This document shows positions 9,416-21,121 of a DNA stretch of 64,000 nucleotides, piece after piece. The stretch spans positions 11,191 through 75,190 of the IMG/VR virus record IMGVR_UViG_3300003316_000244. One strand, written 5' to 3'. The position numbers and the translations under genes are program-made. The notes beneath the pieces were generated by a model. That model was not told the DNA's origin. It did not search any database and saw only the letters and a program-made list of their open reading frames with translations. This stretch comes from a virus. Taxonomy: Duplodnaviria > Caudoviricetes. Within the stretch, counting starts at the first letter, position 1. Each line of letters opens with the position of its first letter.

Positions 9416-11224
9416 TCAATATTTTTTATTCCATACAAATCTCATATTACCAGAATCATATACAATATGATATCCAAGTTCTAACATAATTTCAAATTCA
9501 TGTTTATTTTCATCATATCCGAGTTTAGTTAATACATCACGTCTAAATGAAAAACGATGATACTTTTTATATGTATTATTTTTTACATACCAATAACCGG
9601 GTTCAGTATCATTCATATAAACAAAATCCGTTGATTTATAACTTTCACCATCAAAATATCTTTTATCTACAAGAGATATTATTTGTTTTGGATCAATTTC
9701 ATTAATAAAATGTTTTACTAGTTTACTAAAACCACCATGAACTTTATAATTAAGTTTTTTACAAAACCTAAGTAATTCAAAATGTCCATCAATGTTTATA
9801 TCTTTTTCACCATTTGATTTTCTTTTTTTCCCAAAACCAATAACAGCAACTAATTCACTATTATGCATTAATCCATATTTATGTTTGGTTGCTACACGTC
9901 CTTGGATGTGATTTTCATTTAAAAATTGTGTATATGTTTTACTATCAAGTTCTTTAATTATACATTTTCTTGCATAAACTTTATGGTCATAAATATTAAA
10001 TTTAGATTTGATTATTGATTTAACTATTTCTTTTTTATTAGTCCATTCATCTTCAAATATTTGATATAATTTGATTCCTAATGTTTTGGTTTCATTTAAT
10101 TTATTAATATGATAATCTTTTTCCTTAAAAAGGATAGAATGCCAATATGTACCATCACATTCAAATCCCAAATTAAGTTCTGGTAAAAATATATCTATTG
10201 ATTTTTTATTATCTTTATTATAAATGTATGATCTAATAATTTTTTTAGTTGGTAATAATGATTTAATATAATCACCTATTTCTTGTTCTTTTATTGATTT
10301 AGCAGTTTCAGGAGGAAAACATTTGGTACAAAACATATTTAATTTATAAATATAATATCTTGTATATAATAAATATCTATTAATTTTAAATTCATCATGT
10401 AATGGACAATGATTTTTAACAATAACTTCTTTTGTTTTTTTCTGTAAATCTATTTCTAATGTTGGATACCTCGATTTGAAATTATTTGATATTGTTTCAT
10501 ATCTTTTTTCACTAAGTTTCTCATTATGTAATGGATAAATAACACCATATTTTTCTAAATTAGTTTTATCCCTTTTCTTTCTAACATTTTCATCTGACAT
10601 TGGTCCGCGTGAACCATATTTTTCTAAATTAGTTTTATATATTTTATTTTTAATTTCTTCATTATTAAATGGATTTTCAACCCCATATTTTTCAAGATTT
10701 GTTTTCTTTGTTTTTTCATTAATTTCTTCATTTCGAAGAGTACATTCAACCCCATATCTTTCCAAGTTAGTTTTTTTCAATTTCTCCTTAAGTTCTGGAG
10801 AATGCATCATATTTTCAACACCATAATTTTTGAGTAATGTTTCTTTTTTCTTTTCTTTTACTGAATCTAATTGATTATGACTTTCAACACCATATTTTTC
10901 AAGAAATCCTTTTTTTGTATTTTGTTTTTTTTGATTGGACTGATTGGTGCATTTAATAGAGCAAAATTGATTATAACCTTCACTGATTTTTTCTCTGAAA
11001 TTAACTTCATTAATACCACAATGTTTGCATTTTGCAATTTCAGTTAATTCATAAATATAATTATAAACCTTCTGATTAAAAGGTATTTCTAACATTTTCA
11101 AGTTTAAAGGGAAATTAATTATCTTATCATACAATTCAGGTTTGTTTTTAGATAACCAACTTACTTTGGTTTTATGACCAGATTTGTTGTCTGTAGTAAA
11201 AAAATCGAAGATTTCTTGTTTCAT
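9416..11224 (-). mobile_element. Free-standing homing-endonuclease-like gene: Cys-rich N-terminus, 23-aa repeats, PD-(D/E)xK/Vsr-like nuclease, C-terminal GNAT/Mom-like domain
   Basis: CKHC..FCSIKC; six (E/K)(K/N/R)YG(V/S) repeats; IDIFLPELNLGFECDGTYWHS; YARKC..FLNENHIQG..ELLRFC..GGFSKL; antisense inside the tail module. Confidence 0.7.
10540..10905 (-). repeat. Six imperfect 69-bp (23-aa) tandem repeats KTNLEKYGVE within the endonuclease gene
   Basis: EKYGVESHN, KNYGVENMM, ERYGVECTL, EKYGVENPF, EKYGSRGPM, EKYGVIYPL at 23-aa spacing. Confidence 0.85.
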
Positions 11225-15786: not shown

Positions 15787-15877
15787 TTTTATTTAAACAA
15801 ATAGTGATGAAATTAATTGTATTACAACTAAAATAAACAGTTGAACCCTTATTACCATTATTAATATTAATAATCAT
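15770..15877 (-). pseudogene. 35-aa internally deleted paralog of 15577..15786 (not in ORF track)
   Basis: MIININNGNKGSTVYFSCNTINFITICLNKNENYY: both ends match family C, middle missing. Confidence 0.55.
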
Positions 15878-15878
15878 T

Positions 15879-16040
15879 TTATTTTTTAATTAGGATAATT
15901 GATATATAATTTACTTTTCTTAAAAAGAAATATATATCAATATAATCATATTTTTCATTATGATTTATAAACATATCTTCATTTAAAGAAGAATTATATT
16001 TCCTTTTTGATAATGAATATTTATTGATACTAATAATCAT
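15879..16040 (-). CDS. 53-aa family C paralog (not in ORF track)
   Basis: MIISINKY…IDIYFFLRKVNYISIILIKK, same terminal pattern. Confidence 0.45.
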   Translation of the reverse strand: MIISINKYSLSKRKYNSSLNEDMFINHNEKYDYIDIYFFLRKVNYISIILIKK

Positions 16041-16170
16041 TTAAATTCCTTTTTTGAAGGAAGATCGAGAATAAATTTTTCTTTTAAAGAATCATAATTA
16101 TTTAAATAAATAACCATTTTTAGGAAAATTTTTATTAATAAGTTAATATAGAATCAGATAAATGGTCCAA

Positions 16171-17136: not shown

Positions 17137-17193
17137 TAATCTAAATTTAGAAATTTTATTCTGATATGTAAAATTATCAAATTTTAATGACTC

Positions 17194-17395
17194 TTAAAAA
17201 AAATATTATCAATCTTTTTAAAGAAATAAAAAAATTGATAATATTTTAGATTTTTTTTAAAAATTTAATTATTTTTTAATAATTAATTTCTTTTTTTTCT
17301 TTTTAAGACAGTTACACATAATAAATCTTTAAACATAAATAGTTTAAAGATTAAATATAAAAATGGCACTTTAAAAAAAATGCCATTTTATTTTT
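17194..17395. repeat. Cluster of four consecutive inverted repeats in an AT-rich intergenic gap
   Basis: 17200-13/17234-47 (14 bp), 17265-73/17278-86 (9 bp), 17324-34/17342-52 (11 bp, loop ATAAATA), 17360-68/17381-89 (9 bp, terminator-like). Confidence 0.8.
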
Positions 17396-17400
17396 GTAAA

Positions 17401-18264: not shown

Positions 18265-18876
18265 TTATGATTCAATAGCCTCTTCTTCATTTTCTCTTTC
18301 AATTATTTCATCAATAATTTCAAGTTTTAATGCTTGTTGTGGATCAATGTACCAATCTTCTTTCTGACTATAAATTTTTTTAAGTTTATTTTTTGAAATT
18401 TTAGTTTTACTAACAACAATTTCTTCCATTATTTCCATCAACCTTGTATTTTCTTCAACATCCATTTCTTGCTTTCTAGCTTCTCCACCAGAAGAATCAC
18501 TACTGATTTGATGATACATTAATGTTGAATGTTTATAACAAAATCTTCTATGACCAGAAATAAGAATAATAAAACCAGAACTCATGGCAGAACCAGTATA
18601 ATATGTCCATATTGGGGTATTAGAGGCTTCGATGACACCAACTAAACCAAGAGCAGAATAAATATCACCACCGTAACTATCTAAATAAAGTTTAATTGGT
18701 TTTGGCTTATATTCAAATCCATAAACTTTTGCTAACTGTACAAGCAATGCATCAGATTCATTTATTTCAAGAATTTTTTTCTTAACATAATAACCTAAAC
18801 TTTCTTGTTCAACATCTCCAGCAAAAAATATTAATCTCTTTTTAGGATGGGGAAGATATATTCCATTTTCACTCAT
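18265..18876 (-). CDS. clpP: ClpP-like serine protease subunit
   Basis: IKLYLDSYGGDIYSAL, GSAMSSG (Ser), MYHQ (His), EDWYIDPQQAL (Asp). Confidence 0.88.
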   Translation of the reverse strand: MSENGIYLPHPKKRLIFFAGDVEQESLGYYVKKKILEINESDALLVQLAKVYGFEYKPKPIKLYLDSYGGDIYSALGLVGVIEASNTPIWTYYTGSAMSSGFIILISGHRRFCYKHSTLMYHQISSDSSGGEARKQEMDVEENTRLMEIMEEIVVSKTKISKNKLKKIYSQKEDWYIDPQQALKLEIIDEIIERENEEEAIES

Positions 18877-18898
18877 TACAATTATTAACTACTGATAA

Positions 18899-18930
18899 CA
18901 AAATTATATAAAAACTTATTATTTGTCAAA
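18899..18930 (-). promoter_or_regulatory. Bacteroidota housekeeping promoter TTTG-N20-TAATTTTG upstream of clpP
   Basis: Exact consensus match. Confidence 0.7.
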
Positions 18931-18991
18931 TTTTAAAGAATTTTTTATTGTAAAATACTGAAATACAGATACAATCATTGATGTATGTACA

Positions 18992-19375
18992 TAGAAATCC
19001 CTATCCTGCATAATACCTGTTTAGGAAGAAGTTAAAATGAAATAATTAACTTAATATTAAACAAATATTGTAGGTAGATAATATTAAAATATATAATATT
19101 AAATTAGAATTAATAAAATTAATATTATATAGATACCAGAATATTACCTCTAGCATAATGTAACATCCCTATCCTGCAAGGGGATTAAAATAATAAGTAT
19201 TATGGTAAATCTTTACAGATTATGCAGGTCTATGTTGTGGTTTTTCACATTGCATAGTATTCCTTACTATTCAATCATCAAACTAATATACCGTCAAATA
19301 TTAGTTTTAGTATACATTATACTGATTCATCTTTTCTTATTGGCTAGTAACAATAAATGGAGTAAGAGAATCCTA
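18992..19375 (-). ncRNA. Putative ~385-nt structured non-coding RNA of unknown class
   Basis: 569-bp gap without a convincing ORF; tandem promoter motifs just upstream; end-to-end stem, nested 10-bp long-range helix and at least 7 local hairpins. Confidence 0.55.
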
Positions 19376-19388
19376 TTATAAAACCATT

Positions 19389-19426
19389 ATAAATACAAAA
19401 ATAATAATTAATTATTATATGTCAAA
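19389..19426 (-). promoter_or_regulatory. Host-type promoter TTTG-N19-TATTTTTG (19426-19396) overlapping a late motif GTATTTAT (19396-19389)
   Basis: Both motifs point into the non-coding region. Confidence 0.7.
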
Positions 19427-19445
19427 TTTTAATTAAAAAAATAAT

Positions 19446-20222
19446 TTATAATAAAATAGGTATTAGACCAGTATAATCATAACATTCCATAATTTCTGCT
19501 TTACTATTTTTTTCATTAAACCAAACAATAAAGCATTTACCTATTTTTAGGTTTGGTATTTTTCTATTCAAAATAAATTTATACATTGAAGTTTGTAATG
19601 AATACAAATTCATATGTGAATCATCTAAATGAGATAATGGAGTTTTTAATGTTTGAAAATTATTTGTTAATTTAAATTCTTTATTTGTTTTCCAATCATA
19701 TATTTGGAATTCTTGAGCTTTTATATTGAAAAATAAACCATCCATCATTCCTGCAATACCTATTGCTTCATCATATACGATGAATTCAAGTTTTATTGGA
19801 ATTAATTTTCCATTTGTTTTTTGATAAAAATCATCAATTAAATTTTTGATAATATCAAATTCTTTTTTTATATTATCTTCACCTAGTTCACGAATAACCA
19901 TATCATATGGATAATCATATATTTTATTTAGAAAAAGATTTTCAATATAATTATGTACAATGCTGCCTTTTAATGTAGATTTTTTATTGATGGATTTCCA
20001 ATCAGCTAGAACTTCAGCTTGAGTCATTCCATATTCTTCAGCTTTTTTTAAACTCCATTTATTTTCATCAAATTTTTCTTGAAATTTATGTAAAAATGTT
20101 GTTACTGAAGTTAATTGTTTATAATTAACAAAATATTGATGTGTTTTATCTAAAAACTTTACATTATTAAATGTTGTAAAGAGTTCAAAAGGGATATCAA
20201 TCTTAATTGAATTTTTTTCCAT
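19446..20222 (-). CDS. PD-(D/E)xK exonuclease (RecB/Cas4-like fold)
   Basis: SVTT, KGSIVHNYIE, LEFIVY..IAGMMDGLF..IYDWKT, YSLQTSMY. Confidence 0.85.
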   Translation of the reverse strand: MEKNSIKIDIPFELFTTFNNVKFLDKTHQYFVNYKQLTSVTTFLHKFQEKFDENKWSLKKAEEYGMTQAEVLADWKSINKKSTLKGSIVHNYIENLFLNKIYDYPYDMVIRELGEDNIKKEFDIIKNLIDDFYQKTNGKLIPIKLEFIVYDEAIGIAGMMDGLFFNIKAQEFQIYDWKTNKEFKLTNNFQTLKTPLSHLDDSHMNLYSLQTSMYKFILNRKIPNLKIGKCFIVWFNEKNSKAEIMECYDYTGLIPILL

Positions 20223-20236
20223 TAAAGCAAATATAG

Positions 20237-21121
20237 TTAATTTATAACTATATTATTGGATAATATTTTATTAAAATCAGCATTTTCTAGTTCTCGAATT
20301 AATGAATTTTTGTCAGGAGGTAAACTAGAATAACCATGAACATGTGATAGTAATACTTTTCTGATTAGATTTAATGCTAAAACATTATAATCACCTCTAA
20401 CCATTGGATGACCTTCATTAAATATTTTATCTCTATCTTCTTTGGTTATATTATTATTTTTAAATTTAGGATCACCACCATGAGTTAATAATGCTATTTT
20501 ATCTGCCATTTCAATAATTGATGATCTTTCTCCTTTATCTTCAAAATTTAATCTTATAAATGCTGGATTTTTTTTATTTAGCATTAAAATATTATCAAAC
20601 TCATGTTTACCACAACGAATTTCCACTTCTCTTTCACGAAGTATTACATCAGTATTATTTCGTCCAACCAATGCAATATCTTCAATAGAAGGAAATACAT
20701 TAATGGCATCAGGATTTGTTGAAATTGCTGGTTCTGGTCTACTTAAACCAACATTAGTTGTTGAAAGAGCAGTATAATATTCATCCTTTTTTATTTTTTG
20801 TGGTTGTGAGATTACACTACCCATCCAATGTCTTCCTTGTTGTGGATGTTTTATATCATCAAAGAAAATTCGAACCATTTCACCTACTTTTGGATAATTC
20901 CAGAAAAATTTGGGTAAAATTGGATAACATTGAACCAAATTGGAGTTTGGTATATCTCGATCAATATCTGGAACTCTTACTTTTATACGTCCACCATCAT
21001 TCTCATCAATTATTGAAATAACTTCTCCAAAATATATTGATTTAACAATATTTTCTTTATTAGAATCTTCATTATAAACTGTTTTTGTTTTTTGAAGATA
21101 TTTTTTGTTATATCCTTCCAT
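20237..21121 (-). CDS. Baseplate central spike/hub protein with gp5/VgrG OB-fold N-terminus
   Basis: YFGEVISIIDENDGGRIKVRVP..PKVGEMVRIFF. Confidence 0.7.
   Translation of the reverse strand: MEGYNKKYLQKTKTVYNEDSNKENIVKSIYFGEVISIIDENDGGRIKVRVPDIDRDIPNSNLVQCYPILPKFFWNYPKVGEMVRIFFDDIKHPQQGRHWMGSVISQPQKIKKDEYYTALSTTNVGLSRPEPAISTNPDAINVFPSIEDIALVGRNNTDVILREREVEIRCGKHEFDNILMLNKKNPAFIRLNFEDKGERSSIIEMADKIALLTHGGDPKFKNNNITKEDRDKIFNEGHPMVRGDYNVLALNLIRKVLLSHVHGYSSLPPDKNSLIRELENADFNKILSNNIVIN

Follow-up and report, generated by a model that had tools for sequence, protein, structure and literature searches.

We examined a window of 64,000 nucleotides (the whole stretch of DNA analysed here, positions 11,191 to 75,190 of the IMG/VR virus record IMGVR_UViG_3300003316_000244; Duplodnaviria, Caudoviricetes) and found that the gap between an exonuclease gene and the gene of a ClpP-family protease (clpP) probably holds a stand-alone gene whose product is a non-coding RNA, highly structured and about 390 nt long, encoded on the minus strand and belonging to an undescribed family. 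An RNA of this kind had been proposed in a first reading made from the letters of the window (the sequence-only reading), and the proposal is supported here by covariation with related contigs and by the presence of the RNA's own promoter. The element is the following:

18998-19390, minus strand: structured non-coding RNA, about 390 nt, ends inferred; no conserved open reading frame (ORF), compensatory evolution, and conservation with respect to the related contig L007.

The relatives used for comparison were syntenic contigs reached through homologues of ClpP and of the exonuclease. Two of them, L007 and L008, are identical in sequence and come from two samples; their ClpP and exonuclease are, respectively, 70% and 69% identical to those of the window, and the L007 gap (528 bp) can be aligned to the window gap along its full length. 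We predicted the fold from the window alone and then scored it on L007, which had no part in the prediction. When the 136 pairs of the window fold were applied to L007, 16 were kept with both sides changed and 12 were broken; in the control with 2000 shuffles the kept pairs had a mean of 2.8 and a maximum of 10, and the broken pairs a mean of 31 and a minimum of 19. The reciprocal test, with the L007 fold applied to the window, gave 14 pairs kept with both sides changed and 20 broken, and the opposite strand in the same test yielded only 6-7 kept and 20-26 broken. Moreover, several of the changes between the window and L007 are from A-U to G-U, which is tolerated on the minus strand only, and RNAalifold applied to both sequences proposed 92 pairs, 12 of them compensatory and none broken. 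The sequence-only reading had also looked to folding against shuffled controls, and here the outcome was divided: the z-score of the minimum free energy (MFE) is -2.7 on the RNA strand but -4.4 on the plus strand. Because the opposite strand scores the better of the two, folding energy alone decides nothing, and it is covariation that confirms a predicted structured RNA on the minus strand.

More distant copies extended this comparison to a second clade. We built a covariance model (R1) from the 172-nt core (19323-19152) of the window and L007 and ran it unfiltered over 60 kb of related loci. It matched L012:3422-3600(-) with 27.6 bits (E 1e-4) and L011:113-296(-) with 23.4 bits (E 1e-3), both within a gene-free gap adjoining the orthologous exonuclease gene (52-55% identical). 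In the resulting four-sequence alignment the core comprises eight helices, 97.2% of the pair cells are standard, and 29 of the 49 pairs show compensatory change, compared with 1-5 in slid controls. L012 and L011 taken by themselves present 12-16 compensatory pairs where about 3 are expected, and fewer on the other strand. Compensatory changes, which the sequence-only reading had anticipated in homologous gaps, were thus found in L007, L011 and L012, and these comparisons show the predicted helices to be preserved in two independent pairs of relatives and across two clades.

The primary sequence points in the same direction. Identity between the window and L007 is 0.78-0.87 in the RNA and 0.57-0.64 at the third codon positions of clpP, the exonuclease gene and a 294-aa gene, and the putative RNA is shown by this comparison to be under purifying selection. 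In the 38 aligned bases that follow the second copy of a 14-nt repeat (below 18998) identity drops to 0.50, and it is because of this fall that we delimit the conserved unit at about 19390-18998. This agrees well with the length of about 385 nt and the end near 18992 given by the sequence-only reading.

As to coding capacity, 18877-19445 is the longest gap without ORFs in the window, and we confirmed that no minus-strand ORF within it exceeds 36 aa. Neither translation with TGA as tryptophan (table 4) nor with TAG as glutamine disclosed a credible frame there. The 36-aa ORF (19046..19156) loses its start and N-terminal frame in L007 because of a 43-nt indel, and a 59-aa antisense ORF is absent from L007. 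Comparison of the copies shows no reading frame to be conserved in the predicted RNA.

Two promoters frame the element:

19396-19426, minus strand: promoter of the RNA gene, TTTG (19426-19423), a 19-nt spacer and TATTTTTG (19403-19396); exact match of the Bacteroidota sigma-A type.

18899-18930, minus strand: clpP's own promoter, TTTG-N20-TAATTTTG; exact match, kept in L007 and in the contig L006, which carries no RNA.

Both had been noted before, and the exact TTTG-N19-TATTTTTG at 19426-19396 as well as the separate clpP promoter at 18930-18899, retained in L007 and L006, are confirmed here. We take TTTG-N19-20-TAnnTTTG to be the Bacteroidota sigma-A consensus; with 0-1 mismatch it precedes the RNA at a corresponding position in the window, L007, L011 and L012, and in all four copies it stands 5-10 nt before a conserved 5' segment, AUA(A/G)..UGG(G)UUUU. 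Transcription of the RNA would therefore be independent, driven by a promoter of the host sigma-A type that the four copies keep and presumably starting at about 19390, and the host would be a member of the Bacteroidota, judging by the promoter motif only. The regions of the clpP promoter (18908-18957) and of the RNA promoter (19404-19453) form a 50-nt direct repeat with 72% identity. The RNA gene may have arrived with the clpP promoter or by its duplication. In contrast, the late promoter motif GTATTTAT of the sequence-only reading did not hold up: the window contains 16 occurrences where 10.7 +/- 3.4 are expected, and the motif is not retained in L007. Being neither enriched nor conserved, it lends nothing to the idea of an RNA expressed both early and late.

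The comparisons show a predicted architecture of at least 13 helices in four domains, namely a 5' stem-hairpin, a core built on a four-way junction, a variable long hairpin and a 3' stem-hairpin. Their elements, in the 5' to 3' direction of the RNA, are:

19324-19372, minus strand: 5' domain, helix P1 (19372-19368 / 19328-19324) enclosing P2 (19356-19351 / 19342-19337, 8-nt loop).

19152-19323, minus strand: core domain closed by P3 (19323-19310 / 19164-19152), with a four-way junction of P3, P4, P5/P6 and P10.

19281-19306, minus strand: hairpin P4, 9 bp, with conserved loop UUGACGGU (19297-19290).

19183-19276, minus strand: P5 (19276-19270 / 19189-19183) and P6 (19266-19263 / 19197-19194), enclosing P7/P8 and P9.

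19230-19257, minus strand: hairpin P7/P8, CUAUG..CAUAG around UGUG..CACA, with conserved GCAAUG and CAAC.

19209-19229, minus strand: conserved joiner ACCUGCAUA (19229-19221) and GNRA hairpin P9 (19220-19209, loop GUAA).

19165-19182, minus strand: hairpin P10 (19182-19179 / 19170-19167), with 8-nt loop UGCAGGAU.

19076-19149, minus strand: P11 (19149-19141 / 19084-19076) around an AT-rich insert of variable length (19140-19085).

19012-19069, minus strand: 3' domain, P12 (19069-19058 / 19023-19012) around P13 (19052-19046 / 19035-19029).

Helix by helix, the 5' domain shows two compensatory pairs in P2 of L007, and L011 and L012 repeat its layout ahead of the core: in both, a 5-bp stem encloses a 6-bp hairpin whose loop has 8 nt. 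Between the window and L007, P4 displays two compensatory pairs plus three changes from A-U to G-U or from U-A to U-G, allowed on this strand only, so that the stem ACUAAUAU/AUAUUAGU becomes GCUGGUAU/AUACUGGC while the loop UUGACGGU is unchanged. P5/P6 carry compensatory changes both in L007 and across clades. P7/P8 are invariant in L007, and L011 and L012 have UCAAG..CUUGA and UGAG..CUCA in their place, which are compensatory. P9 goes from AUCU-GUAA-AGAU to CUCC-GCAA-GGAG in L007, where the joiner ACCUGCAUA, complementary to both copies of the repeat, is identical. In P10 of L007, a C-G pair has turned into U-A and a U-A pair into U-G, and the hairpin is also found in L011 and L012 with the loop CUUGAGG(A)U. 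P11 shows one compensatory pair; 43 nt of its insert are absent from L007, and in L011 and L012 a long hairpin follows the core at the place of P11. Finally, the 3' domain is kept in L007 with one compensatory pair, and a 7-bp hairpin with another sequence takes the place of P13 there.

Seven hairpins had been listed in the sequence-only reading, and only some of them fit this fold. Those at 19337-56 (P2), 19280-307 (P4, the 10-bp hairpin, which is indeed present), 19236-49 (P8) and 19029-52 (P13) stand; those at 19309-23 and 19254-70 are local alternatives that clash with the covarying P3 and P5-P7, and that at 19091-130 lies within the AT-rich insert absent from L007. The repeat TGCAGGATAGGGAT was found, as reported, exactly twice (18997-19010 and 19165-19178), about 0.19 matches being expected with up to 2 mismatches. 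Copy 1 occupies 19178-19165, and copy 2 is placed as follows:

18997-19010, minus strand: second copy of the exact 14-nt direct repeat, UGCAGGAUAGGGAU, bordering the conserved unit on its 3' side.

Both L007 copies retain the repeat core UGCAGGAU, which in copy 1 coincides exactly with the 8-nt P10 loop; GAGGAUA is found twice in L012, once in the P10 loop and once in the loop of a 3' hairpin. This suggests, on thin evidence, that the doubling may matter. The two long-range pairings proposed earlier fared less well. The pairing of the ends (19375-66 with 19001-18992) does have 9 of its 10 pairs, but it competes with P1 and shows no compensatory change in L007, where two pairs are lost, one is gained and no double change is seen. 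The 10-bp helix (19005-14 with 19219-28) does have its complement, formed by the joiner ACCUGCAUAAU with AUUAUGCAGG, but in the covariation-supported fold it would be a pseudoknot and not a nested helix; it has 8 bp in L007, and its bases, like those of the proposed switch of the CCUGCA strand between two alternative partners, are invariant between the window and L007. No counterpart of this helix or of the switch was found in L011 or L012.

The RNA did not match any known family. We searched Rfam 15 (4227 models, membership being a score at or above the gathering threshold of the family), which we take to include group I and II introns, RNase P, tmRNA, 6S, SRP, pRNA, GOLLD, ROOL, HEARO, OLE, raiA and riboswitches. 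Nothing in the window reached a gathering score, and the E-value mode applied to the gaps of the window, L007, L012 and L011 yielded only microRNA, snoRNA and CRISPR-repeat noise far below threshold, so that the lack of a match claimed by the sequence-only reading extends to all four copies. ARAGORN found no tRNA or tmRNA in the window, and we found no description of this RNA in the literature. Two further candidates were rejected. For a group I intron, both neighbouring genes have the full length of their homologues (about 260 aa and about 190-200 aa) and abut in the contig L123, no intron model matched, and the supported fold is a nested tree devoid of a P3-P7-like pseudoknot. For a type III antitoxin (ToxI-like), the 14-nt repeat has only two copies, spaced 168 nt apart instead of forming a tandem array, and the neighbour is a PHROG 298 exonuclease, whose gene lies upstream of the RNA in the window and L007 and diverges from it in L011 and L012.

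The genes that flank the RNA are:

19446-20222, minus strand: exonuclease gene, 258 aa, upstream neighbour; PHROG 298 exonuclease, E 1e-21.

18265-18876, minus strand: ClpP-family protease gene, 203 aa, downstream neighbour; PF00574, E 3e-20.

PF12705 is present in distant homologues of the exonuclease, and the PHROG label of the ClpP-family protein is head maturation protease / ATP-dependent protease. The source record is a virus of 75,190 bp with an estimated completeness of 23%, from which a genome of about 330 kb can be deduced. The window has 25% G+C and the standard code (table 11) fits throughout; sheath genes lie near the locus in relatives, the phage being of the large contractile-tailed type. 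The clpP DNA is 65-68% alike in three huge uncultured phages of 462-642 kb (LR756500, LR756502 and LR756504), in which the rest of the 2-kb query had no match and there is no such gap. Two further ORF-free gaps of the window, at 15787-16170 (384 bp) and 17137-17400 (264 bp, with only 7-17% G+C), had no Rfam match at gathering score.

The distribution of the RNA is narrow. The known family consists of four distinct sequences in two clades (the window and L007/L008; L011 and L012), all metagenomic. They share the P3/P4/P5-P6/P10 junction, the P7-P8 hairpin (GCAAUG...CAAC), the AGG-containing P10 loop, the PHROG-298 exonuclease neighbour and the TTTG/TAnnTTTG promoter, all of which we use to define the new family. 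No copies were found in L013, L123, L124 or the three huge phages, nor a second one (paralogue) in the 75-kb record. Neither the conserved blocks nor a degenerate cross-clade pattern, when scanned against IMG/VR, brought up anything but matches due to chance according to nhmmer and the covariance model; the five matches of a JGI metagenome scan were all chance, and no IMG/VR relative was reached through clpP alone. There was no copy in 80 IMG/VR loci with the exonuclease gene (best E 0.24), almost none of which has a gap, and the gene maps of P0104 and P0106 show no large gap downstream of that gene. Since the exonuclease gene and clpP are immediate neighbours in L123, a more distant contig, and the 80 exonuclease loci carry no RNA copy, the RNA would be a lineage-specific insertion at this junction. 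By this account the predicted RNA is kept by two sub-clades and is lost or replaced in L006, and we consider it likely that the family does not extend beyond a small clade of giant phages with AT-rich genomes of about 330 kb.

Several results weigh against the proposal of a stand-alone RNA that serves as a protein-binding scaffold or decoy. L006 is as close to the window as L007 (ClpP 75% and exonuclease 68% identical), and by blastn, nhmmer and the covariance model its 478-bp gap holds unrelated sequence, so that the RNA must be dispensable or replaceable. The 5' end is placed from the promoter, and the 3' end solely where conservation falls off; searches of the 3' end revealed no canonical terminator in the window, L007 or L012, and read-through into clpP is therefore possible in the window and L007. 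Four distinct sequences in two clades are too few for an R-scape-grade test, and the cross-clade alignment leans towards the model because it was fitted to it. The model probably misplaced P4 in L011 and L012; the UUGACGGU hairpin is better matched there by a hairpin with the 8-nt loop A(G/C)UGAC(G/A)A and four compensatory pairs. L012 retains the repeated motif only in part (as two copies of GAGGAUA), and a search of the 75 kb for stretches complementary to the conserved loops or joiners turned up nothing meaningful. As to what stands at the same junction of L006 (L006:1170-1647), the 478 bp are richer in G+C, contain no ORF over 83 aa from stop to stop and have no Rfam match, and their folding energy is no better than that of shuffles. 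On this comparison a different sequence is inserted or swapped in at the L006 junction.

As to its role, it is possible, although speculative, that the RNA is a protein-binding scaffold or decoy. It would show the motif (C/G)AGGAU twice, in the 8-9-nt loop of P10 and at the 3' edge, so that invariant unpaired joiners and two AGGAU-type sites might be offered to a protein, and the GNRA tetraloop would lock the tertiary fold. More doubtful is the idea that it represents the first of a new class of large trans-acting phage RNAs, be it a ribozyme, a self-assembling particle or a conformational switch; in the latter case, the invariant CCUGCAUA joiner might toggle between the P10 loop and the 3' repeat copy and so sense or time some event of the infection. 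If such a class were real, it would have no counterpart among the known RNA families.

A cis-acting leader of clpP would bring the element under a distal promoter as a long structured 5' untranslated region gating clpP (a riboswitch, a thermosensor or a protein-dependent attenuator). The order in the window and L007 is exonuclease, RNA and clpP, all on one strand, which puts the RNA directly upstream of clpP, and no terminator-like site lies between the two; the two possible partners of the CCUGCA strand would suit such a device as well. We nonetheless rejected a clpP leader or riboswitch as unlikely. The conserved clpP promoter stands between the RNA and the start codon, also in the RNA-less L006, as expected from the separation of the RNA from clpP that the sequence-only reading had drawn from clpP's own promoter; conservation ends about 70 nt before that promoter; and in more distant relatives clpP abuts the exonuclease gene and is leaderless. 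Furthermore, the order in L012 is clpP (+), RNA (-), a 51-aa ORF and the exonuclease gene (+), the RNA running from the opposite strand towards the 3' end of clpP, that is, convergent with it and divergent from the exonuclease gene, and the same divergence is observed in L011. Since the two clades differ in how the RNA is oriented with respect to clpP and the exonuclease gene, it would be the leader of neither gene and would act in trans as a folded molecule.

Other differences were seen around this junction. A small ORF (51 or 67 aa) lies between the RNA and the exonuclease gene in L012:3807-3962 and L011:492-695, with no counterpart in the window clade. The exonuclease gene is inverted with respect to a conserved 427/135/68/293-aa gene block in L010, L011 and L012 (the window counterpart region is 19446-21121) and co-directional with it in the window, L007, L013, L123 and L124. 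In L012, a free-standing LAGLIDADG endonuclease gene overlaps the 3' end of the exonuclease gene. The junction looks like a rearrangement hot spot.

That the activity resides in the fold itself, as in a catalytic or self-assembling ornate RNA (a ribozyme or a ROOL/GOLLD-like multimer), we regard as improbable. Its size and complexity, the multi-way junctions, the GNRA tetraloop GUAA/GCAA and the invariant unpaired joiners would fit, and it is phage-borne, as are many ROOL and GOLLD copies according to bioRxiv 10.1101/2024.12.08.627333. However, no ribozyme or ornate-RNA model of Rfam 15 matched, and there is no conserved palindromic loop suggestive of self-association.

Less plausible still is a replication origin, in which a promoter-driven structured transcript would form an R-loop or a primer at an AT-rich unwinding element with iteron-like repeats. 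ColE1 RNA II and the T4 ori(uvsY) and ori(34) transcripts are examples of such R-loop or primer origins. The element has its own promoter and a segment of 13% G+C (19085-19140) between the exact 14-nt direct repeats 168 bp apart, and its being dispensable or replaceable in L006 is what could be expected of one among several origins. But most of the AT-rich segment is absent from L007, selection on base pairing over 390 nt of one strand is not needed by a double-stranded origin, and the cumulative GC-skew minimum is at about 22-23 kb, at the gene-direction switch and about 3 kb off, and not at 19 kb.

Very unlikely is that the RNA structure is incidental and that the true product is a small protein encoded by the hydrophobic 36-aa ORF 19046..19156: although AGGAUAGGGAU in repeat copy 1, a putative ribosome-binding site, ends 8 nt upstream of the ATG and the C-terminal 'ILST.(D/N)IC' is similar in L007, the 43-nt indel puts the L007 start codon and N-terminal half in another frame, no such frame exists in L011 or L012, and the ORF spans only the variable P11 insert and part of P12 and therefore gives no account of the selection on the other ~280 nt. 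The sequence-only reading had named this ORF as the product that would speak against an RNA, and on the sequence check the loss of its frame in L007 and its absence from L011 and L012 speak against the ORF instead. Scarcely credible, finally, is an element devoid of function, a decaying remnant of an insert with chance structure in AT-rich DNA, since the insertion-prone site (with its unrelated 478-bp filler in L006 and the LAGLIDADG gene beside the exonuclease gene in L012) and the modest MFE z-score are opposed by an excess of compensatory change in two independent pairwise tests, by the cross-clade model match and by an identity well above that of synonymous sites.

Giant phages contain a great deal of non-coding DNA that is still unexplained, few large structured phage RNAs are known, and two of these, ROOL and GOLLD, are RNAs whose function is still open. 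Because it comes with a covariation-backed structure, a promoter, a fixed address and natural presence or absence among close relatives (present in L007, absent from L006), the RNA proposed here lends itself at once to in-vitro probing, cryo-EM and pull-downs. Should it prove to bind a protein of the host or of the phage, an RNA player would be added to the infection programme of giant phages whose promoters point to the Bacteroidota as hosts.

Among known systems, CsrA and RsmE bind A(N)GGA loop sites, and the RNAs of the CsrB/RsmZ type carry 5-22 of them. The RNA of the window resembles these as a putatively stand-alone RNA that presents a GGA-containing CAGGAU both in a hairpin loop and close to its 3' end; it differs in that it has two CAGGAU sites, only one of them in a loop, a compact multi-junction fold and no Rfam match. 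The phi29 pRNA is likewise a phage-encoded structured RNA with its own promoter, and the neighbour of our RNA is a gene for a protease of the ClpP-family/head-maturation type; pRNA acts in trans within a protein machine, whereas the trans action of our RNA is an inference, and the latter is about twice as long, has no Rfam pRNA match and does not come from a phi29-like podovirus. The phage csRNA motifs, of 29-151 nt, were each required to match at least 3 IMG/VR regions (PMC10690425). They too are intergenic phage RNAs backed by covariation, but ours, with about 390 nt and no IMG/VR relative found by the pattern and protein-guided scans, would miss the criteria of that catalogue. The nearest kind, by analogy only, would be the large orphan ornate phage RNAs, ROOL and GOLLD. 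Our RNA bears no sequence or structure similarity to them (Rfam 15), is shorter, is represented by four sequences only and does not lie beside tRNA genes, of which the window has none; like them, it would be a large (>350 nt), multi-domain and seemingly protein-free phage RNA gene that is recognised by covariation only.

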